This document shows positions 3,255 to 62,509 of a stretch of DNA of 64,000 nucleotides, one piece after another. Where the stretch lies: contig CBDDTI010000746.1 in NCBI GenBank assembly GCA_965233585.1, forward strand, positions 320,001-384,000, written 5' to 3'. Within the stretch, counting starts at the first letter, position 1. Every line of letters starts with the position of its first letter. The notes under the pieces are model-generated. The model made no database searches. It saw nothing but the letters and a program-made list of their open reading frames with translations, and was not told the DNA's origin. Position numbers and translations under genes: made by a program. This DNA is from a bacterium. GTDB lineage: Bacteria; SAR324; NAC60-12.

Positions 3255-3480
3255 TCATTGCGGGCTTGTTTTTTTGTCATTCCTGCGAAAGCAGGAATCT
3301 ATCCTCTAACTGCTGATGGATTCCGTGTCAAGCACGGAATGACGTCAGGACTTTGCTCACCTTGACCCGCAATCTCTTCTTTTCTGAATCGCTCCGTTTT
3401 TTGAAATTCCGTGTCAAGCACTCAAATGACGTGAGGATTTTGCTCACCTTGAAAACTGTCATTGCTGACCTTGACCCTCA
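3255..3480. repeat. Array of GTCATT...AATC palindromic elements (REP/dRS3-like)
   Basis: GTCATTCCTGCGAAAGCAGGAATCT, GATTCCGTGTCAAGCACGGAATGAC and variants. Confidence 0.9.
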
Positions 3481-3610
3481 GGTTTTAAATTTCTCATTTT
3501 TCAAAAGCTGCCCCGCCTGTTTCTTTTTGTGATTGCCCAAGTCATGCTTATTTCTTTTTTTGAGAATCGTGTTAAAATGGCGTCTTTAGACTTGACAAAC
3601 TGACAGCCTT

Positions 3611-3898
3611 ATGATTGCCATAGACACCCTTGCATATACCAAAGCCTTGATTGCAGGAGGCTTCACAGCAGAACAAGCAGAAGTCCAAGCCAACACTTTG
3701 AATCAAACACTCAATGAGTCTTTGAAAGAAGAAATTGCAACCAAAGCAGACATAGCAAAAGTGGAATCAAGAATAGACTCGGTAGAGTCCAAAATAGACT
3801 TGGTAGAATCTAAGATAGACTCAACTCGCTGGGTGTTAGGCATGATTTTAGCTGTGAATGTCGTCATGTTAGGTGTGATTTTAAGCAAATTTTATTAA
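3611..3898 (+). CDS. DUF1640/CCDC90-like coiled-coil membrane-anchored protein
   Basis: IDTLAYTKALIAGGFTAEQAE head, IATKADI neck, VESKID heptad repeats, RW followed by a C-terminal TM helix. Confidence 0.85.
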   Translation: MIAIDTLAYTKALIAGGFTAEQAEVQANTLNQTLNESLKEEIATKADIAKVESRIDSVESKIDLVESKIDSTRWVLGMILAVNVVMLGVILSKFY

Positions 3899-4660: not shown

Positions 4661-4959
4661 TCAAATCGCTTTGAGTTCAATGAATGTCAGAGGAAGGGAT
4701 TGGTTTTTCTTGAATTTGATCCAATATTTTTGGTAGGTCGTCTGGTAAATCTGCAAGTCTGTATCTAATGCTTGTAAATGTTTGCTTTGTTTTAAAGACT
4801 GAAACTTGAGATGCAAATAACAAAAGACATCACATAACAAATCCTTTTCTTCATCAGCAAAGAATGAAAAAAATCTAATGCTCCTGTGTGTGGGTAAAAT
4901 TTACAAACTTTTGCCTCATTTTTACAAAGATAATGGTCTTGCGCTGTCTTATATTCCAA
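4661..4959 (-). pseudogene. Putative ~100-aa toxin partner of the Panacea antitoxin (RelE-like size), frameshifted
   Basis: TTG start overlaps the antitoxin stop; MEYKTAQDHYLCKNEAKVCKFYPHTGALDFF continues after a 1-nt shift near the T7 run (4867-4873) as ADEEKDLLCDVFCYLHLKFQSLKQSKHLQALDTDLQIYQTTYQKYWIKFKKNQSLPLTFIELKAI-stop. Confidence 0.45.
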
Positions 4960-5491
4960 AATAAGATTCTATCTTTTTCATGCGTTCAGAGTCGGGTTTG
5001 TAGTTTGGCAAAACAACAGACACAGGCTTTTCTTTGAGTTCAATATAAACCTCAACAAACTCATCTTTCATTGCAAACTCACTTTGAAAAAAGTTTAGCA
5101 AAGACTCATGGGTTATTGGGACGTTTTGACCCTCTTGGTAAGAATTTAGCCAAGGCGATTCTTCGTGAGTCATTTGAAATAACTTGATTGCGTCAATCTG
5201 CATGTAAGTCTCTTTGATGGCGTCAAGGATCGGGCAAGTTTTTTGTGATTCATAATCAATCAAGATGGCAGATTGTCCATATTTCTTAAAATGATGATAG
5301 ACATCTGGCACGACAGGTCCCAATTCCCACGCTTCTAAACCCTCTAAAAAGAGCGGTTTTTTCTCTATCGCCAATGAAAATCCTTGGGCATAATAAAGGA
5401 ACTTTTGTAACTTCAAATTGGAGATGACCTGACCCAAATCAGGTTGACTCCTTGCTATGATTTCTTTGGCAATCTCTATAGCACTTAGCAT
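4949..5491 (-). CDS. Panacea-domain antitoxin (DUF4065/GepA/SocA family)
   Basis: ISNLKLQKFLYYAQG, EAWELGPVVPDVY, THEESPW motifs. Confidence 0.9.
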   Translation of the reverse strand: MLSAIEIAKEIIARSQPDLGQVISNLKLQKFLYYAQGFSLAIEKKPLFLEGLEAWELGPVVPDVYHHFKKYGQSAILIDYESQKTCPILDAIKETYMQIDAIKLFQMTHEESPWLNSYQEGQNVPITHESLLNFFQSEFAMKDEFVEVYIELKEKPVSVVLPNYKPDSERMKKIESYFGI

Positions 5492-25955: not shown

Positions 25956-27932
25956 CTATTTGCTATTAATGTCTTTAAAAGTTGGTTTACCATTGCTCAA
26001 GGTGGCTGTTTCGCTGTTGAGTAAATAGCACTCTTTATAGTCCCAAGTGACTGCTATAAATTTACGATGGTATCCATAATTTAGACTATCAGGTTCATTA
26101 ATGATCTTTTGCTGCCAGTTTTTCATACTAGAATATTGACTTGTTTTTTGAAAGTCTTTCAATAGTGTTTTTATATCTTTGTTTATTAGTTTAAAAATTA
26201 ATTCTTTTAAATAATTTTTATCTTTATCTTTACTAAAGTTTCTTAAAGCTTGAATATCTTCAACAATGCAGAATCTGCGACCGCCAATGTGTTTGTAACT
26301 GTTACCTACATGGAAGAATTTACAAAAAAACCAACCATCCTTAATCGTAAAAAGAGCGGCTCTTAACTCATTTGAAACTAAATGATCTTTTTCTTCAAGG
26401 TATTGGAGAACTTCTTGAATTTCTAAGAGCTTACTACTATTAAAAGAATCTAAATTTTCTTTATCAAAATCAATACAATAAAGAGCGAACTCTATATCTC
26501 CCTGACAAAAATTGGTGTCTTCTGTTTTAAAAATAGAATCTCTGTTTTGAGCATTATGAACAATCAATTTTGCCTTTAATACTTCTTGTTGTACTTGTTT
26601 TGATGCAAAGCCTGACTTGATTTGACTTGTTGCTAAATGGTTGTAAATATCAAAACAACCTGCCACAAGTTCGTTTATCAAATTGATTGCTAATCTAAAT
26701 GTTCGTGGGCTGTCTATTGTAGAATGATGGACGATATTCTGAACAACCCGCATCCAATCTTGAAATTTTTCTCCATTAAAATTTTCATTTTCTTTTTGTA
26801 ATTTTAATAGATATTGAGTTTGAGCAAAAAACAAAACTTGTTCATGGTAGCTTGTGTATTCAATACTACTTTTAAATAGTTGTTTTTTATGTCCTAACCA
26901 AGATTTGATATTGCTTTCAAGTTCATCAGCGAGCTTGTTATCATATCTTTTATTTTTATCAGAATAAAGATCAAAGCATTGTTTTAAATAATCAAAAGAT
27001 TCTTGATTCGTAAAATGTTCTGGTTGAGTATCATTTGGATTATTGTAAAGGTTTTGAATTGTTGTATTTTCATCACCTTGATATTCATAAAGACAAATGG
27101 CTTGCATGGCAATTCTTGAGATAAACTTCATAAATTGGTTATCCACTAGGTTATCTTTATCTCTATATTTCCAAAACAAATCTAACCAAACTGTATCAAT
27201 TTTATGAGAAAATTTATCTGTCTCTGGAATATCATCATCTTCTAAATGATTTTCTCCTATATGCTTTTGAAAGCTGGCTTTAAAGTTTTCAAAGTCAGTC
27301 AATGCTTTTCCTCGTGCATTCATTTTGATATAGAGGTCATCGGTGAGACCAAAATGTTCCATTTGTAGAAATTCAAAACTAATGTTTTGTAGTCTTTCAA
27401 AGCCATTTTTAATGTCTTTAAATTCGTCATGAATCGCTTTGTTATGAATAGCGTCTATCATGGTCAACATAGACTGCACGGTCGGGTCTTTTTCCCAATA
27501 AGTTAAAAACCAAGAAAAGTCTTTGATTTGTCCACTGAGTAGTTCGCCATGTGAAAAGCAACTTTCAGAATCTACTAGAGCTTGACAAAACTCTCTGGAA
27601 CTGGCTCTCGTTGCATAATTGAATTTTTTTAAATCTTGAATATGTTTACCTTCTTTTTTTCCAAAATACCAATGAAGTAGAAACAAAGTGGTCAATCGTT
27701 GTTGTCCATCAAGAGGGATAAATTGATTGCACTCAATACTTCCATAGACAAAATCTAAATGAAGTTCTTGATTAGTTTCTAATGCCTTAAAAATAGCATT
27801 TAAAAACTTGTTTCTTATTTGTTCAATTTTTCCATCTTTTCTCCCTTGAGCATAGTCTCTTTGGATGATAGGAATTTCAATTTCATTTGCTTTGATAATC
27901 TCTTGAAAAGTTTTTTTAGTTGAATCACTCAT
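25956..27932 (-). CDS. DUF262 (GmrS-like NTPase) protein with a long C-terminal region lacking a clear HNH motif
   Basis: IPIIQRDYAQGR, LDGQQRLTT, YIKMNARGKALT. Confidence 0.88.
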   Translation of the reverse strand: MSDSTKKTFQEIIKANEIEIPIIQRDYAQGRKDGKIEQIRNKFLNAIFKALETNQELHLDFVYGSIECNQFIPLDGQQRLTTLFLLHWYFGKKEGKHIQDLKKFNYATRASSREFCQALVDSESCFSHGELLSGQIKDFSWFLTYWEKDPTVQSMLTMIDAIHNKAIHDEFKDIKNGFERLQNISFEFLQMEHFGLTDDLYIKMNARGKALTDFENFKASFQKHIGENHLEDDDIPETDKFSHKIDTVWLDLFWKYRDKDNLVDNQFMKFISRIAMQAICLYEYQGDENTTIQNLYNNPNDTQPEHFTNQESFDYLKQCFDLYSDKNKRYDNKLADELESNIKSWLGHKKQLFKSSIEYTSYHEQVLFFAQTQYLLKLQKENENFNGEKFQDWMRVVQNIVHHSTIDSPRTFRLAINLINELVAGCFDIYNHLATSQIKSGFASKQVQQEVLKAKLIVHNAQNRDSIFKTEDTNFCQGDIEFALYCIDFDKENLDSFNSSKLLEIQEVLQYLEEKDHLVSNELRAALFTIKDGWFFCKFFHVGNSYKHIGGRRFCIVEDIQALRNFSKDKDKNYLKELIFKLINKDIKTLLKDFQKTSQYSSMKNWQQKIINEPDSLNYGYHRKFIAVTWDYKECYLLNSETATLSNGKPTFKDINSK

Positions 27933-29663
27933 TTAGTTTTCTCCTTTTGAATTTAAAAATTTGTTTAATGTGTCTGACATAGATTCAAGATAATCTTGTC
28001 TATTTTTTTCACTCCAAAAATAGAGGTTTCTATCATCTGGACTGTAATATTTTAAAAAGACATTTTTGGTGTAGATAGGAATAAAAGCACCATTTTGATC
28101 TTTCTCTATGATTCTTTTTCTCTTGGTAGGAAATAAAGCATTACTTAAAGAAGAATTGTTTTTTCCCGTCAATAAAGTTAAATTCTCAATCCCATCTGAA
28201 GATTCAGCCCCAAAAAGATTGAATATCTTATCTTTTAATTCGTTAAATTCTGTTTCATTTTTGTCATCAATTTGTTCTGATTTTAACAAACTTTCAATTT
28301 CTTTCAATATACTTTCTTTGGTTGGTTTTTCTTCATCTTTCAGCTTTTCAAATCTCTTTTTGAACTCTTCAGCAGGTATTAATCCAATTTGTTCTTTGGC
28401 TTCTTTTAACCAACCTATTTTATCTTTTATTTTAGAATCAGCTTGAGGATGGATATGTTCTAAACTCCAGTTTTCTTGACGAAACCTATCAAAAGCAAAT
28501 CTAAGGTGACTGCTTTTTTCATTTAAGAGTGTCGCAATGTTGAACAGTAAAAGAATTTTTTCAATTTTTTCTCTGTTGTTGGGGTAATCTGATTCTCTAA
28601 TCTCTTCAATTTCTATTTGGTTATACAACCAGCTTTTAAACTCTGTTTTTGTTCTTTGTCTAGCTTCTTCATAAATTGTCTTTACATCTGAACCAATAGT
28701 AATTAAAAACCCAATGAGATGATACAATTTTCTATCTTCAAACCAATGTTTCAAGGTCAAAAAAACTTTCTTGATATTATTTGTGTCTTCTGACCATAAT
28801 TTGACAATGCCTTCATCTTTTTTCCCTTGAAACCATCTATAAACAGCTAGTTCATCATTTTCTGTTTTCTTTTGACCAGAAAAGATTTCAAAAATCAATT
28901 CTATTCTGGATTGGTAAGGCTTTTCTGCTGTTAAAAAGTACCAAAACTCATCATTTTGTAAGGTTTGTTCTATGTCGTCCCATTCTTTAGCTATTTCTAT
29001 TTGTTTGATGTTTTTTTCGTTGTCCCTAAAATTTTTACTATTTAAAAAGAGAGATTTGATTAACTCTGCACTGGTTAAAGGAATCTTCCCCATATTCAAT
29101 CGGGTAAAAACATCTATCTCATCGTTTTGAATTTCATACCAGATTACTTTAGTATGATGTTTAAATTTAGATTGAAAATCGTTATTGTCTAAATCCTTAC
29201 CTTTCTTTTCAACCCATTTATGAATAGCTTGATAAGCTTTAGACATATGATGATAATCTATATTACTGTCATCTATTTTTATAGAATTTTCATCTATCTT
29301 TAAATCTTTAAGAAACTCAAAACTTCCCTTTCTTGTTCCATATTCTATTTGAAACTCTTGAACTTTTTGTTTACCGACCCACATTTCATTTGCGTAGTGA
29401 ATGATCATAAAAATAGTCGTCAATCTCTGCTGTCCATCAATCACTTCATATTGACCATCTTGCCCTTCCTTAACAACGATAGGTTGAAGACAATAAAATT
29501 CATCACGACCTTTTTCGGGCTTTTGTATAAATTCCCAAATGTCATCTAACAAATCTGTGACATTTTGTTCTTTCCAGCGGTAGCCCCTTTGATAAGAGGG
29601 TATGAAAAATTTTTTATCCAACAAGTCTTGGATAGGTGTCAGTTTTAAATTGTCTGTTGTCAT
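27933..29663 (-). CDS. GmrSD-like DUF262-DUF1524 (HNH) restriction nuclease
   Basis: IPSYQRGYRW, IDGQQRLTT, FTRLNMGKIPL; EHIHPQ...IENLTLLTGKNNSSLSN. Confidence 0.92.
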   Translation of the reverse strand: MTTDNLKLTPIQDLLDKKFFIPSYQRGYRWKEQNVTDLLDDIWEFIQKPEKGRDEFYCLQPIVVKEGQDGQYEVIDGQQRLTTIFMIIHYANEMWVGKQKVQEFQIEYGTRKGSFEFLKDLKIDENSIKIDDSNIDYHHMSKAYQAIHKWVEKKGKDLDNNDFQSKFKHHTKVIWYEIQNDEIDVFTRLNMGKIPLTSAELIKSLFLNSKNFRDNEKNIKQIEIAKEWDDIEQTLQNDEFWYFLTAEKPYQSRIELIFEIFSGQKKTENDELAVYRWFQGKKDEGIVKLWSEDTNNIKKVFLTLKHWFEDRKLYHLIGFLITIGSDVKTIYEEARQRTKTEFKSWLYNQIEIEEIRESDYPNNREKIEKILLLFNIATLLNEKSSHLRFAFDRFRQENWSLEHIHPQADSKIKDKIGWLKEAKEQIGLIPAEEFKKRFEKLKDEEKPTKESILKEIESLLKSEQIDDKNETEFNELKDKIFNLFGAESSDGIENLTLLTGKNNSSLSNALFPTKRKRIIEKDQNGAFIPIYTKNVFLKYYSPDDRNLYFWSEKNRQDYLESMSDTLNKFLNSKGEN

Positions 29664-29672
29664 GGTGACTCC

Positions 29673-30155
29673 TTAATTATTTTGATTTTGTAAGTGGATT
29701 TGAAACAGCTTTGCACAGGCTTTCGCATCGCTCAAAGCATCGTGATGATTGAGAGGGATATGATAATGATGACACAGCGAAGACAAGTCTTTTTTGAATA
29801 TTCTGTAAGTGCAAAACTTTTGATATGGTGGTTCTTTCATTCCGTAGTATTCAAGGGTTTTGCTCAAAACGTCAAAATCAAAACTAAAACCATTGTGTGC
29901 AACAACATTTTGGTTTGTGATGTAGGGTTCTATCTTGTGCCAAATTTGATTGAAAGTTGGGGATTGAGCGGTCTTTTTTGAGTCTATGCCGTGAATATCA
30001 GTAAAGTCGCCCCAATAATAATTATCAGGTGGCTTGACCAATAAACTCATTTCTTGAGTGACACACCCCTGTTCTACCCGAACCAGTCCGACTTGGCAAA
30101 TACTGAAACGATACCCTTGGGCTGTTTCAAAATCTATTGCTGTAAAATTTTCCAT
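29673..30155 (-). CDS. DEDDh 3'-5' exonuclease (DnaQ-like)
   Basis: AIDFETA, VAHN..FD, HHDALSDA. Confidence 0.92.
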   Translation of the reverse strand: MENFTAIDFETAQGYRFSICQVGLVRVEQGCVTQEMSLLVKPPDNYYWGDFTDIHGIDSKKTAQSPTFNQIWHKIEPYITNQNVVAHNGFSFDFDVLSKTLEYYGMKEPPYQKFCTYRIFKKDLSSLCHHYHIPLNHHDALSDAKACAKLFQIHLQNQNN

Positions 30156-30163
30156 CAATCTAA

Positions 30164-30339
30164 CTCCTGAAATTAAAAAAGCTCCTATTCTATCTCTTTT
30201 GAAAAAAAACGCAAGTTGTGGGTTTAGGTTAGCAATGGATGCAGGTTGTCATTGCAGGCTTTTCCTCAAAGTTTTCTACCATTTCAACCTCCTGAAATTC
30301 AAAAAGCTCCTATTCTGTCTCTTTTGAAAAAAAGTCAAG
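30164..30339 (-). repeat. Direct duplication (~50 bp) of promoter plus RBS
   Basis: CTCCTGAAATT.AAAAAGCTCCTATTCT.TCTCTTTTGAAAAAAA starting at 30164 and 30289; minus strand reads TTGCGT-16nt-TAGAAT and AGGAG. Confidence 0.85.
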
Positions 30340-30384
30340 AGTTTAAGCAAAGGTTTGTTTCATAGGTGTTTTTTGGGTAGGAAT

Positions 30385-31605
30385 TTAAAGGTTTTGGATT
30401 TGTTGTTTGGAAAGTCCAGTAGCAAGGCAAATGGTTTCAATGTCAATGCCTTGAGCAAGCATGTTTCGGGCAATGTCAAGTTTCTCTGCTTGCCTTCCTT
30501 TTTCCATTCCTTTTTCCATTCCTTTTTCCATTCCTTTTTCCATTCCTTTTTCCATTCCTTTTTCCATTCCTTTTTCCATTCCTTTTTCCATTCCTTTTTC
30601 CATTCCTTTTTCCATTCCTTTTTCCATTCCTTTTTCCATTCCTTTTTCCATTCCTTTTTCCATTCCTTTTTCCATTCCTTTTTCCATTCCTTTTTCCATT
30701 CCTTTTTCCATTCCTTTTTCCATTCCTTTTTCCATTCCTTTTTCCATTCCTTTTTCCATTCCTTTTTCCATTCCTTTTTCCATTCCTTTTTCCATTCCTT
30801 GCTGAAGACCTTCTTCTTTGCCTTCTTGCCTTCCCTTTTCCATTCCTTTTTCCATTCCTTGTTGGAGACCTCTTGCCATTCCTTTTTGAAACCCTTGTTT
30901 AAGTTGAAGTTGTTCAGCACCTTTGATGATGGCAACAAACTCTTGTCTTTTATAGACGACCTCTAATTCTTCAGGAGATAGCCCTGCTTGATTGACCAGA
31001 TGCAAGGCTTCTTGAATGGTTGGGTCAAAAGTTTGGGGAATCTCTTGTAACCCTTCTGCATGCTTGATGCAATAAATCCACTCTTCTTGCAACTCTTTGA
31101 GTTCATCTAAAGGCTTTTGAAACTTTGGGAGTTCCACAAAAATCAATTCAATGTCATCAGAATACTGACTTAAATTCTTCTTCTCTAACAACTTGAAAAC
31201 ATTGATGATTTGGTCGTTGTCTTCAAACATGATGAAATCAAGGATATTGAGTGCAATGACAGGATTGAGCAGATGATACTCGTTGCCTTTCACCAGTTGC
31301 ATAGAGTAGTTTTTACAAGCATTGTAGAGGATTCTCTTCTCAAAGCCTTCATGGTTGACGACCTGCATCTCAATCAGAACTTGCTGACCTGTGTCAAGTT
31401 TCGCTTTGACATCAACAAAGGTGATTTTCATACCCTCTAACAAAGGTGGATTATAAGGGTCTTGAATCGTCAGGTCTTGAATGGTCTGCTGATGAGGGAA
31501 CTCAATCAGCGAATTGAGAAAGCTGATGAGTAGGTCTTTGTTCTTCTCATCTCCAAACAGCATCTTAAAGGCGTAATCTGTTTTAAGGTCTAAAAATTTC
31601 ATCAT
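30385..31605 (-). CDS. Rpn family PD-(D/E)XK nuclease / putative transposase
   Basis: DYAFKMLFG, VDVKAKL, LIEMQ, FVELPKF, C-terminal IARNML..G......TGLS. Confidence 0.92.
   Translation of the reverse strand: MMKFLDLKTDYAFKMLFGDEKNKDLLISFLNSLIEFPHQQTIQDLTIQDPYNPPLLEGMKITFVDVKAKLDTGQQVLIEMQVVNHEGFEKRILYNACKNYSMQLVKGNEYHLLNPVIALNILDFIMFEDNDQIINVFKLLEKKNLSQYSDDIELIFVELPKFQKPLDELKELQEEWIYCIKHAEGLQEIPQTFDPTIQEALHLVNQAGLSPEELEVVYKRQEFVAIIKGAEQLQLKQGFQKGMARGLQQGMEKGMEKGRQEGKEEGLQQGMEKGMEKGMEKGMEKGMEKGMEKGMEKGMEKGMEKGMEKGMEKGMEKGMEKGMEKGMEKGMEKGMEKGMEKGMEKGMEKGMEKGMEKGMEKGMEKGMEKGRQAEKLDIARNMLAQGIDIETICLATGLSKQQIQNL
30499..30798 (-). repeat. 25 perfect copies of a 12-bp coding tandem repeat (GGAATGGAAAAA = GMEK)
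   Basis: TTTTTCCATTCC x25 on the + strand, plus two more units at 30835-30858. Confidence 0.97.
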
Positions 31606-41782: not shown

Positions 41783-42049
41783 TTTTCTAAAAAATTATTG
41801 TCTAAAAAATTAATTTCTAAAATTTCTAAAAAATCGTTGAGTTGAGGGGGTTGATGGTAGATGTTCAATAAAGAACGTTTGGAAGTTAAGAAAAATTTCA
41901 TTTGCCCGTCATTGTAGCACTTGATGCCGAACCTTTCTAGGAAGGTAGAATCAAGAAACCTTCAGTCGTTGAATGCCTTGAGTTATGAGGCAAGCAGTGG
42001 TATAGTGCTTGTCTTTTAAGTTTTTTAATCAAAAAGAGAAGGAACAAAC

Positions 42050-43612
42050 ATGACAGGAAGTGAACAGCGAGAAAAATTACAAAGGTAAATTTGGCAAATT
42101 GCTAACGAGGTCAGAGGGGCAGTTGATGGCTGGGATTTTAAGCAATATGTGCTTGGCACGTTGTTTTATCGCTTTATCAGCGAACACTTTGCCAGCTATA
42201 TTGAAGCAGGCGATAAAAGCATCAATTATGCTGAAACTTCTGACAGCGTCATCACAACAGCCATCAAAAACGATGCCATTCAAACCAAAGGTTATTTTAT
42301 CTATCCAAGCCGGCTTTTTGCTAATGTTGTCAACAATGCTGACACTAACGGCAGCCTCAATACCGACTTAGCCAACATCTTCAGCCAGATTGAAAACTCT
42401 GCTACTGGTTACCCTTCTGAACAACACATCAAAGGGTTATTTGCTGATTTTGACACCACCAGCAACCGCTTAGGGGGTACAGTGCAAGCCAAGAATGAAC
42501 GTTTGGCGAAGGTCTTGAAAGGGGTAGCAGGTTTAAGATTAGATGATTTTCAAGGCAATCAAATTGACCTCTTCGGTGATGCTTATGAGTTTTTAATCCA
42601 CAACTACGCCGCCAATGCAGGTAAGTCAGGAGGTGAGTTTTTTACTCCGCAAAATGTCTCTAAATTGATTGCACAGCTTGCCATGCACGGGAAAGATGAG
42701 ACAAACAAAGTCAACAAAATCTATGACCCCGCTTGCGGTTCTGGCTCATTACTGCTACAAGCCAAAAAGCAGTTTGATGAGCATCTTGTAGAAGATGGCT
42801 TTTTTGGTCAAGAGATTAATCACACGACTTACAACCTTGCCCGTATGAACATGTTCTTGCATAACATCAATTACGACAAGTTTCACATTCAGCAAGGCAA
42901 CACTTTAACAAGCCCATATTTTGGCAACGACAAACCTTTTGACGCCATTGTTTCAAATCCTCCCTATTCTATCAAATGGGTTGGTTCTGATGACCCGACC
43001 TTGATTAATGACGACCGCTTTGCTCCTGCAGGCGTTCTTGCTCCCAAGTCCAAAGCAGATTTTGCTTTTATCATGCACGCTTTAAGTTACTTGTCAGCCA
43101 AGGGAAGGGCTGCCATTGTCTGCTTTCCCGGTATCTTTTACCGCGGCGGTGCAGAGCAGAAAATCCGTCAGTATTTAGTGGACATGAACCACGTTGAAAC
43201 CGTCATCGCCCTTGCTCCTAATTTATTTTACGGCACTTCTATTGCCGTGACTATTTTAGTGCTTGCCAAAAATAAAATTGACACAAACATTCAATTCATT
43301 GATGCCAGCGGCGAACAATTTTTCAAAAAAGGAACCAACAATAATGTCCTGACCGATGAGTATATAAAGCAGCTTATTGAGCTATTTGCCAACAAAAAAG
43401 ACGTGCCGCATATTGCCCAATCCGTTACTTTAGAGGCTATCAAAGCCAACGACTACAACCTATCAGTCGCAAGCTATGTAGAAGCCAAAGACACCCGCGA
43501 AGTCATTGACATTACAATGCTCAATGCTGACTTAAAAAATACCGTTGCTAAGATTGACAATTTACGCACTGATATTGACGCCATCGTTGCAGAGATTGAG
43601 GGGGAAGCATAA
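42050..43612 (+). pseudogene. hsdM: Type I R-M methyltransferase subunit M with TAA at codon 13 (an internal restart at 42149 is possible)
   Basis: AAGGA RBS and ATG at 42050: [55 protein letters not shown]. Confidence 0.88.
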
Positions 43613-44765: not shown

Positions 44766-45098
44766 ATGTACTTTCTTGTAGAACATAACCGAGACACCAA
44801 GCACACTGAAGTTGGGGAATTTACAGATTTTGATGAGGCAAAGAAGCAATTCTTTAAACGAGAACAACATTATTTGCAACAGGGGCAAGATGAAATGGAA
44901 GTTGTCCTTTTTGAATCAGAGTCACTAGATACTTTAACGGCAACACATAGTCGCTATTTTGTCAATGACTATGAAAAAAATAATGAAAAAAAAGGAGGCA
45001 AAATAGGCGATGCTCTGATAGCAACAGGCGTTGCTTTCATAGCAGTTGGTTTAGTCTCATTAGCCGTTGGAATCCTTACTAAACATTTAGACGAGTAA
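44766..45098 (+). CDS. Hypothetical protein with a C-terminal TM helix
   Basis: GGAGG RBS; 110-aa ORF. Confidence 0.7.
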
Positions 45099-45132
45099 AA
45101 TATCTCAAATTTTTTCAAACCGCTCATTGCCG

Positions 45133-45596
45133 ATGGTCTTACCTAACAAACTCAACCTTGCCAATCAAGTTGACCTTGCCAAAGCAGAAGAAAAAATCGG
45201 CAAACAACAGGCAAAAAAGCTCTTTGATTCTGGTGAAATAGACAAGGTAGAAGTTGGCACTTTCAAAGGGTTGGCGTGCATTCACGCTTATTTGTTTGGT
45301 CAAATCTATGACTTTGCAGGCATCATGCGCACCGTCAACCTCAGCAAAGGCGACTTCCGCTTTGCACCTGTCATATATCTCCAACAAGCCTTACAACATA
45401 TTGACCAAATGCCTCAACACACCTTTGACCAAATCATTCAAAAATATGTTGAGATGAACATCGCCCACCCTTTCCGTGAAGGCAACGGACGCACAACACG
45501 CATCTGTCTTGACCTCATGCTTAAAAAACACCTCAAACAAGTCATTGATTGGAACGCCATAGACAAAGACGACTACCTTTCTGCCATGCAACGAAG
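45133..45596 (+). pseudogene. fic: Fic-domain AMPylase truncated by IS1
   Basis: [12 protein letters not shown] motif; the reading frame runs into the IS end after AMQR. Confidence 0.88.
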
Positions 45597-46367
45597 GCAG
45601 TGTTCACTTGATATTGGCATGATATTTTTCAAACCTTTTATAGTCAAAGAAGAGTTGTAGAGAGTGTTCCAGCATGTCAAAAGTTTTGGAATGTCGTTTA
45701 GATTTTCTCATCAAGCGAGCTAGGTTATCTCTGATGGAAGAATTAGAAGATTCAATGAGATGAGTGTTGTCCTTGCCTATCTGATGCTTTTGTGGAATTT
45801 GGAGTTGTGCAAATGCCACTTGATAGCATGAGTTGGCATCTGTATAAATCGTTTCAATTCTAGCTCGTTGTGCTTTGACTAGTGCATACAGCTGCTTTGC
45901 TGCTGCTAATCCTTTGCCTATCACAAAGGCAATCACACATTGTTCTTGACGAGAATAGGCTGTCCAAACAGCTACTCTTTGGCTTTTTTTTGAACAAAAG
46001 TGTAGATCTCATCCATCTCTATACTATCTACTTGTGCATGGAAACTTGGTGCGTCTTTTGGAAGTTGAGACACTCTAGCTTTTTTGATCCAGTTGACAAT
46101 TGAAGCGGGAGACACCTGCAAAAAACGAGCGATCTTTCTGATGCCTACACTATTGACATACATCTCTAAGGCTTGACGCTTGGTCTCTAGTGGGATTCTC
46201 AAACCATTTGAGGTGAATGCTCTCTGACATGACTTGCAACGATACCTCTGAACCCCTTTGTAACTTCCATTCTTGATATAAGTCTGACTCCCACAATGAT
46301 GACAACTTCTCATTTCCATTCCTCAAATTCACTCTCACATGCAATGACAATACCAACTAAACACTGC
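45597..46367 (-). mobile_element. IS1-family element (distinct from the first), no target duplication
   Basis: IRs GCAGTGTTCACTTGATATTGGCAT / GCAGTGTTTAGTTGGTATTGTCAT; flanks are not duplicated. Confidence 0.9.
45604..46319 (-). CDS. insAB: IS1-family transposase (InsA/InsB, -1 frameshift)
   Basis: [18 protein letters not shown]8 run at 45984-45991; -1 frame [10 protein letters not shown]..., [13 protein letters not shown]. Confidence 0.9.
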
Positions 46368-46504
46368 TCCTTAGCAGTGGCTTACTCACGTCAAGCAAGG
46401 TAATTTTATTTTGGCAGATTCCCAAATTGGGAGAAACAATAAAAGATTTTGCAAGAAAGAGAATTAGGCAAGAGGTAGTTTTTGAGATTAGTGTTGCATT
46501 TGTC

Positions 46505-47071
46505 TCACATTTTATTCACCTTAAAAATGAGAAGGGATAAGGATTTATCAAAGCTTTGATAAATCTTCTCTTGTTTTTTCTGTTGAAGTATTGTGTATTT
46601 AAACCCTTTTTCCTGAAAACTTCCGCCAGTGACAATGTTTTTGTACTGGTAACGGAAGTTTTTTATCTCTTCAAACTCCTTTTGAAAGATATTTTTGTGA
46701 GAATACTCAGATAGTGTAATTATTGTATCAAGTTGGTGTGCGATAGTAGTAAATAAGTGAATCAAATGGGATTCCCTGTCTTTTGAAACTGCTGACTTTC
46801 GCACACATTCTGTGACAACACGATTGACACTTGTAACAGTTTCTTGCAGTGTTTCAATTTTTCGGATGATAACATTTTTTTCACTTCGCTTATTGTGCAT
46901 ACTTTTTTCTAGAAAGTTTGGAATATAAACAGCTAGAAAAATTGTGACGAGTAATGTCGCAAACTCTACAATGTCAATTTGTTCTTCAAAGGGGAAAGCT
47001 GGGTAGTAATGTTGCGTCCCTACTCCAATAACAATACCTAATAGCAGACTTACGATAATAAGTTTTGTCAT
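46505..47071 (-). CDS. Two-TM membrane protein with a helical C-terminal domain
   Basis: Two hydrophobic N-terminal segments; TAATG overlap with the upstream gene. Confidence 0.75.
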   Translation of the reverse strand: MTKLIIVSLLLGIVIGVGTQHYYPAFPFEEQIDIVEFATLLVTIFLAVYIPNFLEKSMHNKRSEKNVIIRKIETLQETVTSVNRVVTECVRKSAVSKDRESHLIHLFTTIAHQLDTIITLSEYSHKNIFQKEFEEIKNFRYQYKNIVTGGSFQEKGFKYTILQQKKQEKIYQSFDKSLSLLIFKVNKM

Positions 47072-47400
47072 TAGGCATTAGCTTCTTTGATATATTCAGT
47101 TATATCTCCTTCTAAAAAAGGATCATCTTTTGATTTAAATTCTAAATTAGCGAGAACGATTTTCCAATCCTTATATTCTCTTACTAATCCGCCAAAAGCC
47201 GCCTCCAAAAATGAAGTGGCATACCCAGCTGTATCATCAAGATCAATAAACACCTTTTTCTTTTCGGAAAGAGCTTGCTTAAACTTTGGAAGGAGGATTC
47301 TTGATAGAAACTCTTCACCTGAGTAATCACCTTCTTCTGATTCCCGTACACCCGGAGTCGTCGTGTAATCATACGCTATTTTGATAGTTATTTTATCCAT
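47071..47400 (-). CDS. DUF4325-like STAS (anti-anti-sigma-like) protein
   Basis: PG.R....G.YSGEEF and IDLDDTAGYATSFLEAAFGGL. Confidence 0.8.
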   Translation of the reverse strand: MDKITIKIAYDYTTTPGVRESEEGDYSGEEFLSRILLPKFKQALSEKKKVFIDLDDTAGYATSFLEAAFGGLVREYKDWKIVLANLEFKSKDDPFLEGDITEYIKEANA

Positions 47401-48371
47401 TTGTTTGTTTTGTTTAATTCCCAATAAATAAATGTCCCACTAAATTCTTTTGATAGCTTTTCATACTTTCCCATGCTTAAATCAGCCTTGACATCATTTG
47501 AGACAATTTTTAGGTTACTGTAGGCATTTCTTTTTGATGCTCCCAGATAAATACTCGGTAATCCCTTTCCTCTATAACGAAGCTGCGTACTCGACATTTT
47601 ACGACCCTCAATGATTTTCTTCAATACCTCCCGATTATCGGTAAAACCGAAACGATCAGTCAATTTCTCTTTAAGAGATATCACTTTTTTAGTCTTAAAA
47701 ATACCTACTCCCATATCAACGAAAGCGAAAGACGCCTTCTTGGCAGATTCATTATAATAAACAGTTAACCACCATGTTTCATGTCCAACCTGATCTGGCT
47801 TTGCATGGTAACACGTATTTGCCATACACTCCATCAATGCTCTATAAACACCTTGACACCTAGCTTCATGATCAAAAACAAATTTAGTTGTTTGTTTTAT
47901 AATTTCATTAGCTATAGCTCCGTCTGCTTTCTTATTTTGCTGAGTAAGAATGTAGTTTTTGTGTTTGTTCTTTGTATTCGCACCAAAAATCCCACTTTCT
48001 ATAAAAATTCTCCTCAGTTTTTTCTTTCTTGGAGAATTACCTTGTATTGACACGCCTTGCTTAATTGAGAGGCTCTGGACAGTTGCAAGCAATAAGACAA
48101 TAGCATCATTAGTTAGTTTATCAATACTTTTAAGGTCTATGAGTACCGATACGTCTTTATCAATATGGGAACGAATTTTTTTCAGGTAGGAAATCACCCC
48201 TGCGGTATTTTCAATAAATGAAAAGTTGCGTGGTGCAGGCAGTTTTTTAAAATGGTCGGTAGATTGACGTGTTTTGTTACGTCTTTTTTTACTTAATCGT
48301 TGTTTTAAACAATCTTTAGCGTGTTTGGTATTGCGTTTTTTGTACTCATCCGTTGAGTAAAGTTTTTTCAC
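47388..48371 (-). CDS. STAS-like plus GHKL (HATPase_c) kinase-like protein
   Basis: IDLKSIDKL STAS-like strand; N box ECMANTCYHA, G1 DMGVGI, G2 RGKGL, terminal GT; no HisKA seen. Confidence 0.75.
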   Translation of the reverse strand: MKKLYSTDEYKKRNTKHAKDCLKQRLSKKRRNKTRQSTDHFKKLPAPRNFSFIENTAGVISYLKKIRSHIDKDVSVLIDLKSIDKLTNDAIVLLLATVQSLSIKQGVSIQGNSPRKKKLRRIFIESGIFGANTKNKHKNYILTQQNKKADGAIANEIIKQTTKFVFDHEARCQGVYRALMECMANTCYHAKPDQVGHETWWLTVYYNESAKKASFAFVDMGVGIFKTKKVISLKEKLTDRFGFTDNREVLKKIIEGRKMSSTQLRYRGKGLPSIYLGASKRNAYSNLKIVSNDVKADLSMGKYEKLSKEFSGTFIYWELNKTNKWIK

Positions 48372-48602
48372 AACTAAATTTCTTCGCTACCCTTCAACCT
48401 CATAACGCCTGCTATTCCACACACCAGCTAACACACTCTATCATTTAAGAAATGATAGATTCAACCGAAAAAATCTTTTTTGAACACCAAAGCCCCAATA
48501 CACAGGCGCAGCTGATACAGTAGCAAGAGTATTTGAGTTTCTTGATGCAACCGTCCCAAATCTTTATTAATCCTGATGCTGTCAGAGGAATAGGTAATGA
48601 CT

Positions 48603-61345: not shown

Positions 61346-62509
61346 ATGGCAAGTTCTTTGTTTACTTCTGAAAGTGTGACGGAGGGTCACCCTGATAAAA
61401 TCTGTGACAAGATTTCAGACTCTGTTCTTGATGCGATGTTTAAGCAAGACCCTCATAGTCGTGTGGCTTGTGAAACCTTTGTGACAACAGGTCTGGTCTT
61501 AGTCGGTGGAGAAGTCAGTACAAAAGCATACGTTGATGTGCAAGGGATTGCACGTCAGACTGTGCAAGAGATTGGTTATACAGACTCTTCAATGGGTTTT
61601 GACTCTAAAACTTGTGGCGTCATTGTAACTTTAGATGAGCAGTCTCCAGACATTGCACAAGGTGTGGACTCCCAAGAACAACAAGGTAAAGAGCAAGGGG
61701 CTGGAGACCAAGGTTTGATGTTTGGCTTTGCCTGTGAAGAGACCGAAACCTTGATGCCTTTGCCTATTTTGTTGTCTCATCAGTTGACACAAAATTTAAC
61801 AAACCTCCGCAAAAGTGGTGAGCTTCCCTACCTCAGACCTGATGGCAAAGCACAAGTGACAGTGCGATATGTTGATGGAAAACCTGTTGAAGTGACAGCA
61901 ATCGTTGTCAGTACGCAACATGCCGAAGATGTGTCTCAGGAGCAGATTCGTCAAGATTTGATAGAAAAACTTGCCAAAGCTACCATTCCCAGCAATTTGC
62001 TTTCTTCCAATGTTGTCTATCATATCAATCCGACTGGAAAGTTTGTGATTGGTGGACCTCATGGAGATGCAGGATTGACAGGTCGCAAAATCATTGTGGA
62101 CACTTACGGGGGCATGGGCAGGCACGGAGGCGGTGCATTTTCAGGCAAAGACCCTTCTAAAGTAGACCGTTCTGCCGCATACAATGCACGTTATATTGCC
62201 AAAAACGTTGTTGCCGCAAAATTGGCGTCTCGTTGTGAAGTCCAGCTTGCTTATGCCATTGGCGTTGCTGAACCTGTTTCTGTCTCAGTGGATACATTTG
62301 GCACAGGTCAGGTTGATGAAACCAAGATTGCACAGCTCATCAGAGACCACTTTGCTCTCAAACCCAAAGAAATCATTGAGTCCCTAGATTTGTTGCGTCC
62401 CATTTATGCACAAACTGCGGCGTACGGGCATTTTGGCAGAGAACTTCCAGAATTTAGCTGGGAGAAAACGGACAAAGCAGACATTTTAAGAAGCCAAGCA
62501 GGTCTATAA
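61346..62509 (+). CDS. metK: S-adenosylmethionine synthetase
   Basis: [28 protein letters not shown]. Confidence 0.98.

Follow-up and report, generated by a model that had tools for sequence, protein, structure and literature searches.

What does a predicted GHKL kinase do when its gene overlaps one for a small STAS-domain protein, which in turn overlaps one for a membrane protein, and the whole sits among defense genes rather than beside a sigma factor? The question is raised by a three-gene cassette at positions 46505-48371 of a 64,000-nucleotide stretch of bacterial DNA (the window; positions 320,001 to 384,000 of contig CBDDTI010000746.1, GenBank assembly GCA_965233585.1, lineage SAR324), whose genes we call g1, g2 and g3. 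A preliminary description, made from the sequence alone, had suggested a partner-switching circuit repurposed to control a membrane effector, and therefore a candidate anti-phage or abortive-infection system. Comparative evidence and published precedent support this interpretation. At a probability of about one half, we take the cassette to be a mobile conflict module, acting in anti-phage abortive infection or as a tripartite toxin-antitoxin system, with a sensor-switch pair and an orientation resembling those of the VapKSC system.

Three minus-strand open reading frames (ORFs) in our ORF listing exactly span this region (Table 1). All are intact in the window and keep every conserved residue. 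The overlaps behind the earlier claim of translational coupling can be read directly: the ATG of g2 lies within the last codons of g1, giving a 13-nucleotide overlap with the g1 stop codon (ATGGATAAAATAA), and in the string TAATG the ATG of g3 and the stop codon of g2 overlap by 1 nucleotide. An alternative TTG start of g2 at 47424 would give a protein of 117 residues (47071-47424). The ATG at 47400 is the aligned start in 48 of 79 relatives, and residues of g2 are numbered from it below.

Table 1. Features of the cassette and of the surrounding island. Positions refer to the window or, for motifs, to residues of the g1 protein.
Feature	Position	Strand	Description	Assignment
g1	47388-48371	-	327 amino acids, GTG start, MKKLYS... 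as in relatives	predicted sensor kinase
g2	47071-47400	-	109 amino acids, ATG start	single-domain STAS protein (Pfam DUF4325), likely kinase substrate
g3	46505-47071	-	188 amino acids	membrane protein of no described family, proposed effector
Intergenic stretch 5' of g1	48372-48602	-		expected promoter place
g1 motif ExMxNTxxHA	E181, N185, H189		invariant in 40 sequences	N-box
g1 motif FxFxDxGxG	D219, G221, G223		invariant in 40 sequences	G1 motif
g1 motif GxGLP	G268, G270		invariant in 40 sequences	G2 motif
g1 motif GT	G312, T313		invariant in 40 sequences	
hsdM	42050-43612	+	in-frame stop at codon 13 (42086-42088)	
fic and insertion sequence	45127-46368			
IS1-family element	about 45596-46368		ends are imperfect inverted repeats (about 45596-45620 and 46344-46368)	
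insA-like ORF	45972-46319		split	part of IS1-family element
insB-like ORF (split)	45604-45936			part of IS1-family element
Terminator-like hairpin	46362-46379			part of IS1-family end

The first protein clearly belongs to the GHKL (Bergerat-fold) ATPase/kinase superfamily, since motifs and fold both fit. No Pfam, NCBIfam or PADLOC model matched g1, and searches of PDB sequences with g1 or with a g1 profile gave chance-level matches only. We found 412 homologs at E ≤ 1e-3, and none of 120 carried a Pfam domain among the matches listed. Nonetheless, in an alignment of 40 relatives the four nucleotide-binding motifs of the superfamily appear as invariant columns (Table 1). An AlphaFold2 model built on the same alignment has a mean predicted local distance difference test score (pLDDT) of 86 and a predicted template modeling score of 0.80. 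In a Foldseek search of the PDB with this model, all three matches at E ≤ 0.001 were GHKL proteins (PDK2, TRAP1 and HK853), as were the lower-ranked matches inspected (among them BCKDK, DivL and CheA P4), and the top template modeling (TM) score on the target fell to SpoIIAB (1til_E, TM 0.67, E = 1.5e-3).

Ahead of the kinase domain (residues about 150-327), g1 has a Lys/Arg-rich N-terminal helix (about 1-40) and a STAS-like part (about 42-130). The preliminary description had seen a STAS-like domain fused to a GHKL ATPase without HisKA. The GHKL domain stands and no HisKA/DHp domain was found in g1, while the STAS-like part has the weaker evidence behind it. Strands and helices alternate over residues 42-130 of the model, and when 40 family members were scanned singly against Pfam at E ≤ 1, sub-threshold matches appeared to HATPase_c in 5, STAS in 3, DUF4325 in 3 and STAS_2 in 2; the ESM Atlas gave nothing usable for this domain. 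Across the 40 relatives, the segment before the invariant P47 has a median of 38% Lys plus Arg and a net charge of +17, compared with 15% Lys plus Arg in the rest of the protein. A helix as basic as this would suit nucleic-acid binding.

The second protein matches Pfam DUF4325 (PF14213) at E = 6.2e-12, with 45.5 bits against a gathering cut-off of 23. It also carries the Thr-Ser pair (T62-S63) that had led to its description as a small DUF4325-like STAS protein with TS at the usual phospho-acceptor position. The candidate acceptor S63 falls in the motif GY(G/A)TSFLE and is invariant in all 79 relatives, 75 of which also have T62. From a manual comparison with the SpoIIAA sequence, we take S63 to occupy the position of the SpoIIAA phospho-serine. 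On these sequence features g2 is likely the substrate of the g1 kinase. There was no NCBIfam or PADLOC match to g2, and a g2-profile search of PDB sequences returned chance-level matches and no VapS or CapS chain, in a PDB copy that may predate those entries.

The third protein, g3, belongs to no Pfam, NCBIfam or PADLOC family, and no PIN, SLATT or other Pfam match was found even at E ≤ 10. Its description as a helical protein with two transmembrane segments held up: two hydrophobic N-terminal segments (residues 1-20 and 31-55, with the membrane hairpin placed at about 2-22 and 34-55), with two such regions present in 51 of 55 aligned relatives, precede four long helices. In the AlphaFold2 model (pLDDT 87.8, five helices) these form a helical hairpin followed by a four-helix bundle. 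The bundle is probably cytoplasmic, because the loop between the membrane helices is acidic and a basic stretch (EKSMHNKRSEK) follows the second of them, as expected under the positive-inside rule. Of 80 aligned ORFs, 78 share T148 (window about 46628-46630). This Thr, replaced by Ser in a few copies, is the only nearly invariant polar residue of g3, stands before a Gly-Gly-x-Phe or Asp-Thr-Pro turn and may be a second phosphorylation site. A similar Thr/Ser motif is seen in diverged copies, plasmid-borne ones among them, at loci L038 (9189-9806), L084 (3318-3785) and L085 (about 3330-3860), which were missed by our hidden Markov model (HMM) of g3.

The family of g3 is large. A g3 profile run against 1.84 billion cluster representatives matched 1972 (clusters at 50% identity) with an E-value of 1e-3 or better, of which 1161 pass 1e-10 and 209 pass 1e-30; the label 'orphan' given earlier to the cassette was therefore misleading. 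The best 150 relatives are 141-231 amino acids long, and no longer, fused forms were found, which is weak evidence by the nature of the search. Matches of g3 in the ESM Atlas were its own unnamed clusters only.

We sought relatives of g1 in one genome per species, found 120 and kept the best 80 loci. HMMs of the three window proteins recovered g1, g2 and g3 in that order, all on the same strand, in 77 of the 80 loci. A chance run of ORFs is rejected by this count, and because order and strand are kept so widely we regard the triad as a self-contained conserved unit. Two of the three exceptions (L064 and L078) lie at contig or locus ends, and the third (L038) has, in the place of g3, a 205-residue ORF with two hydrophobic segments that the g3 HMM missed. 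The preliminary description had asked whether the third gene varies among homologs; across the 77 loci and L038, it does not vary in kind. In two of the 77 ordered triads g3 is split. The related loci come from at least nine phyla.

More distant triads were found on plasmids and in phages. Their first and second genes match the g1 HMM at E-values from 2e-12 to 2.5e-58 and the g2 HMM from 1.5e-18 to 4e-35. The third gene encodes 134-191 amino acids with one or two N-terminal hydrophobic helices; only in Leptospira does the g3 HMM still recognize it (E = 2e-8), its divergence being too great elsewhere. No function is assigned to these triads in their records. The Leptospira plasmid copy adjoins a HepT/MNT pair, the copy on a Vibrio alfacsensis plasmid adjoins MazEF, and those on two Acinetobacter plasmids adjoin RelE/ParE; on one of the two plasmids an insertion sequence interrupts g1. 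Further copies lie on a Novosphingobium plasmid, in a Helicobacter prophage and in Marinobacter phage AS1 (genes 41-39, adjoining Cro/CI genes). A Francisella prophage is described with a comparable run between repressor and integrase (Fhv_0046-0048, encoding a 293-residue hypothetical protein, a DUF4325 protein and a transmembrane protein; PMC7924643). A tblastn search of plasmids and phages with g2 returned membrane-type triads or kinase-less DUF4325 genes only. Two Vibrio megaplasmids belong to the latter kind (L087, 2854-4240; L088, 2995-4381), with DUF4325 genes lacking a kinase and followed by three small genes, two of which encode hydrophobic helices; an ImmA/IrrE peptidase gene adjoins. 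Here the STAS-like domain is put to another use, one that involves no kinase.

Having established the triad as a unit, we examined its surroundings. The 722 genes called no farther than 6 kb from the triad in 79 loci form 683 clusters, the largest with 5 members, so the triad has no conserved neighbor. Our neighbor set comprised 140 proteins, encoded by the two genes closest to the triad on either side in 35 loci, these being the first 35 of 61 loci with two genes on both sides, after two near-duplicate loci were dropped. PADLOC models were matched at E ≤ 1e-10 by 34 of the 140 neighbors, in 19 of the 35 loci. Most matches are to restriction-modification genes, both type I and type II, and the others include Mrr, BrxA, AbiE, AbiU, Fic (PDC-S04), RhuM (PDC-S05), PDC-M32 and ATPases like GajB and QatA; one of the matched proteins, a class V aminotransferase that scored as SspA/DndA, could have a housekeeping role. 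By Pfam, parts of type I restriction-modification systems adjoin the triad in 7 of the 35 loci, as they do in the window, and integrases, serine recombinases, transposases, small terminase or phage lysis genes are found in 7 of 35. For comparison, 46 window genes outside 42-48.4 kb gave 4 matches, two of them housekeeping cross-hits (MutY and RmuC) and two in a second defense islet. The enrichment of homologs in defense islands that had been suggested as a check is therefore seen, at 34 of 140 vs 4 of 46 (one-sided Fisher p = 0.015), against a small control from one genome.

Two Bacteroidales loci deserve separate mention. In L026 (2693-12173) and L006 (5341-12652) the triad again occurs with type I restriction-modification and Fic (PDC-S04), and L026 also has RhuM (PDC-S05), the same gene company as in the window. 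The g1 proteins of these two loci are only about 35% identical to that of the window. In another locus (L042), a gene with a Panacea domain adjoins the triad.

This context bears on two other explanations. In the first, the cassette would perform ordinary stress partner switching on a sigma factor or housekeeping target encoded elsewhere, as the GHKL and STAS pairs best known, those of sigma-B and sigma-F regulation, would lead one to expect. Pfam finds no sigma-70-family or PP2C/SpoIIE phosphatase gene among the 140 nearest neighbors, and a scan of 56 ORFs of the window found neither a sigma factor nor a PP2C, in line with what had been noted earlier for the vicinity of the cassette. Instead of a conserved housekeeping or sigma-factor setting we found variable flanks, a patchy distribution over at least nine phyla that conflicts with host phylogeny, and copies on plasmids and phages. 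We consider this explanation highly improbable, and a sigma-factor regulatory module in particular was rejected, since its context largely refutes it.

In the second, the triad would serve plasmid or prophage addiction or superinfection exclusion purely, with no abortive infection; g3 might, for example, block DNA entry. The triads on small plasmids beside MazEF or RelE/ParE pairs and insertion sequences speak for this, as do those that temperate phages carry in immunity or accessory regions, among which the Francisella prophage may be counted from its published description (PMC7924643). Among the 80 loci, however, the named neighbors are mostly restriction-modification and other defense genes, and the explanation overlaps with a conflict module in any case, VapKSC being described as both a toxin-antitoxin and a defense system (PMC13373217). 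As a complete account of the cassette it is improbable.

The precedent for a conflict module comes from two systems described by Chambers et al. (EMBO J 2026, PMC13373217). In one, the kinase CapK (HTH-STAS-GHKL, HTH being helix-turn-helix) is switched on by single-stranded DNA and phosphorylates CapS (STAS-winged HTH) on a conserved Ser, and the CapKS pair lies directly downstream of restriction-modification genes in 88 of 443 cases (PMC13373217). In the other, VapKSC, the presumed event is phosphorylation of the STAS antitoxin VapS at S48 by the kinase VapK (STAS-GHKL), which would free the PIN toxin VapC; it is VapS, not the kinase, that binds the toxin (PMC13373217). Against phage Bas42 the vapKSC operon is reported to protect by about 2 logs, and a PADLOC hit lies within 10 kb in 103 of 289 loci (36%) (PMC13373217). 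What the paper says of VapS suggests that it is a DUF4325 protein like g2.

As far as the published account of VapKSC goes, the cassette resembles it in several respects. Both are three-gene operons in the order kinase, STAS protein, third gene. The first protein is in both a GHKL protein without HisKA, with a STAS part that is weakly supported in g1, and the second consists of one STAS domain, is small and has an absolutely conserved Ser/Thr acceptor (VapS residues reach at least 116). Neither encodes a phosphatase, both are patchy across phyla, and type I restriction-modification is often near (Dataset EV3 of the paper). The two differ in the third gene, which here encodes a membrane protein of about 190 residues with a helical bundle and not a PIN nuclease, and in the long Lys/Arg-rich N-terminal helix of g1. 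The likeness to VapK and VapS is one of architecture and description. With CapK-CapS, as described, the cassette shares a GHKL kinase with an internal STAS domain (weakly supported in g1), a STAS partner with a conserved Ser and frequent adjacency to restriction-modification. In that pair, CapK has its HTH at the N terminus, and the winged HTH at the C terminus of CapS acts as repressor of the operon downstream. The cassette, by contrast, has no HTH family in g1 or g2, g2 is a STAS domain only (109 residues), and no conserved operon lies downstream of the triad. A CapKS-type regulator was rejected for the lack of HTH domains.

RsbW and SpoIIAB are kinases that phosphorylate STAS partners and control sigma-B and sigma-F. 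The cassette shares with RsbW-RsbV and SpoIIAB-SpoIIAA the combination of a GHKL Ser kinase and a STAS substrate with its acceptor Ser at the start of helix 2. Those kinases, on the other hand, are single-domain proteins of about 145 residues that bind a sigma factor and have a PP2C phosphatase in a conserved operon, whereas the cassette has an extra N-terminal domain, a membrane partner and neither a sigma factor nor a phosphatase. Their logic nevertheless offers an orientation opposite to that of VapKSC. By it, g1 would silence g3 much as RsbW holds sigma-B, and unphosphorylated g2 would sequester g1 and free g3, so that falling ATP, or a kinase blocked during infection, would set off the response, and not activation of the kinase. 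This is the textbook logic of RsbW/RsbV and SpoIIAB/SpoIIAA (also summarized in PMC13373217). The SpoIIAB match of the g1 model fits it, and a phosphatase would be unnecessary if the ATP level were the signal. In VapKSC, however, the closest tested architecture, the STAS protein is reported to bind the toxin (PMC13373217), and the extra STAS-like domain and basic N-terminus of g1 suggest activation by a ligand. We think the classical orientation unlikely.

If the cassette instead works in the orientation of VapKSC, events might run as follows. At rest, g2 would bind the cytoplasmic four-helix bundle of g3 and keep it inactive, by analogy with VapS and VapC. Infection or DNA damage would produce a nucleic-acid signal, most likely single-stranded DNA if CapK and VapK are a guide, which could be sensed by the basic N-terminus of g1, by the groove between its STAS-like and GHKL domains, or by both. 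The GHKL domain, once activated, would phosphorylate g2 at Ser63, a step suggested by the catalytic motifs and the acceptor Ser. Phosphorylated g2 would then release g3, which may assemble in the inner membrane or perturb it, and growth would be arrested before the phage cycle is completed. With no phosphatase encoded, the switch would turn in one direction only, in keeping with a system for suicide or arrest.

Abortive infection has membrane effectors of comparable kind, among them SLATT two-transmembrane domains and the transmembrane effectors of CBASS and Pycsar. Like them, g3 is a short protein with one or two transmembrane segments, encoded last in its operon and presumed to damage the membrane on release. 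It differs in its four-helix soluble part and in its proposed control by a phospho-switch rather than a nucleotide signal. On the kinase-STAS switch, such a membrane effector would replace the nuclease, an arrangement that appears not to have been described before. The word 'transmembrane' is absent from the main text of PMC13373217, no paper in our literature search combined 'STAS domain', anti-phage, kinase and transmembrane, and 'VapKSC' occurred only in PMC13373217 and its preprint among the matches listed.

The structure of g3 also admits roles other than that of an effector. It could control g1 as a membrane anchor, or by sensing a disturbed envelope, for instance when phage DNA enters or a holin acts; g1 would then provide the output by phosphorylating g2 plus host or phage proteins. 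Alternatively, its Thr/Ser could be a target of the kinase. The bundle resembles the sensor domains of chemoreceptors and histidine kinases in weak Foldseek matches (Tar, QseE and HK9), and g3 has no recognizable pore or enzyme signature. As for a kinase target, the Thr is kept in 78 of 80 ORFs, and a Ser takes its place in a similar GG-F motif in L038 and in an Acinetobacter plasmid copy. These Foldseek matches, however, all lie above E = 0.04 and are generic for helical bundles. g2 consists of a STAS domain alone, and kinases of the class of g1 are not known to act as toxins. Moreover, the triad must carry its own output, because it moves between phyla without a conserved neighbor. We find these roles for g3 quite unlikely. 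A further version keeps the STAS switch of the conflict module and adds direct phosphorylation of a Thr or Ser of g3 by the g1 kinase, making g3 a kinase-gated channel or membrane-breaching assembly; this is a speculative extension, and one we doubt.

Several observations weigh against the cassette being a VapKSC-like conflict module. Three of its links, the binding of g2 to g3, the toxicity of g3 and phage protection by the cassette, are ones that we infer. Nothing marks g3 as a pore or enzyme, and its Foldseek matches in the PDB and BFVD are generic four-helix bundles, none of which reaches E ≤ 0.001. That the N-terminal domain of g1 is STAS-like is weakly supported, and hhalign shows no relation between the g1 and g2 families (probability 1.8%). 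The families of PADLOC-DB 2.0.0 (2023) include none matched by g1, g2 or g3 at E ≤ 0.01. The defense enrichment relies on a small control from one genome, and in 12 of the 35 loci the four nearest genes include no PADLOC match (E ≤ 1e-10), recombinase, transposase or phage gene. A consensus scan of minus-strand positions 48372-48602, which covers the sigma-70 type only, found no sigma-70-like site upstream of g1. Finally, the island in the window is decayed, with an in-frame stop in hsdM and fic cut by IS1.

That island contains the IS1, fic, rhuM and hsdM genes named in the preliminary description, each of which we identified beside the cassette. Neither hsdS nor hsdR is near hsdM, and the type I restriction-modification system of the island looks defunct. 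The NmFic model is matched by fic only to position 141 of 177, its 3' end being cut by the IS1-family element. Between rhuM and fic, a plus-strand ORF of 110 residues (44766-45098) has a hydrophobic C-terminal helix and a single match, a weak one to the PADLOC model PDC-S33 (E = 1.8e-5). Two pairs of inverted repeats at 41940-41990 and 48398-48556 flank the 6.5-kb island, which lies between pheA and a PAP2 gene. These repeats are imperfect (20 nucleotides at 85% and 23 nucleotides at 74%) and could be chance or relics of insertion.

Two other places in the window carry genes of a similar kind. The second defense islet, at 25959-31605, has a low G+C content (0.29-0.33) and encodes two adjacent GmrSD_N/DUF262 proteins, one of which matches the PADLOC models HEC-06, Orf5 and SspE, together with a DEDDh exonuclease and a protein of a PD-(D/E)XK 'transposase' family. 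On the minus strand, a gene at 4952-5491 encodes a protein with a SocA/Panacea antitoxin domain, suggesting that the window has one more toxin-antitoxin pair.

The cassette and its host have different affinities. Housekeeping genes, at 61346-62506 and over the whole window, place the host near the uncultured SAR324 lineage; MetK of the window is closest to proteins of SAR324 cluster bacteria at 76% identity, and another protein reaches 87%. The closest relatives of the cassette, at 61-66% identity, are from Bacteroidota. In a quick maximum-likelihood search with 78 rows, rows shorter than 300 residues being left out, the window g1 fell into a six-row clade with five Bacteroidota, with a Shimodaira-Hasegawa-like approximate likelihood ratio test (SH-aLRT) support of 100, and the nine labeled phyla require at least 14 changes on the tree. 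The tree and MetK fit horizontal movement of the cassette, with no donor proven.

The GHKL-STAS immune switch has been known only since 2026, with outputs that are transcriptional (CapKS) or a PIN nuclease (VapKSC). If our interpretation of the cassette is true, the kinase-STAS pair would be a general, exchangeable sensor module of bacterial immunity that drives a membrane effector too, and a function would be given both to Pfam DUF4325 and to an unannotated family of membrane proteins of about 190 residues. Should g1 also phosphorylate g3 directly, the roughly 2000 clusters of the family would make up a large class of suicide or arrest systems, so far undescribed, whose membrane part is phospho-gated, a form of control that bacterial immune effectors are not known to have. 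In either case, the triad would offer a simple three-gene system for how phosphorylation in the cytoplasm becomes damage at the membrane.

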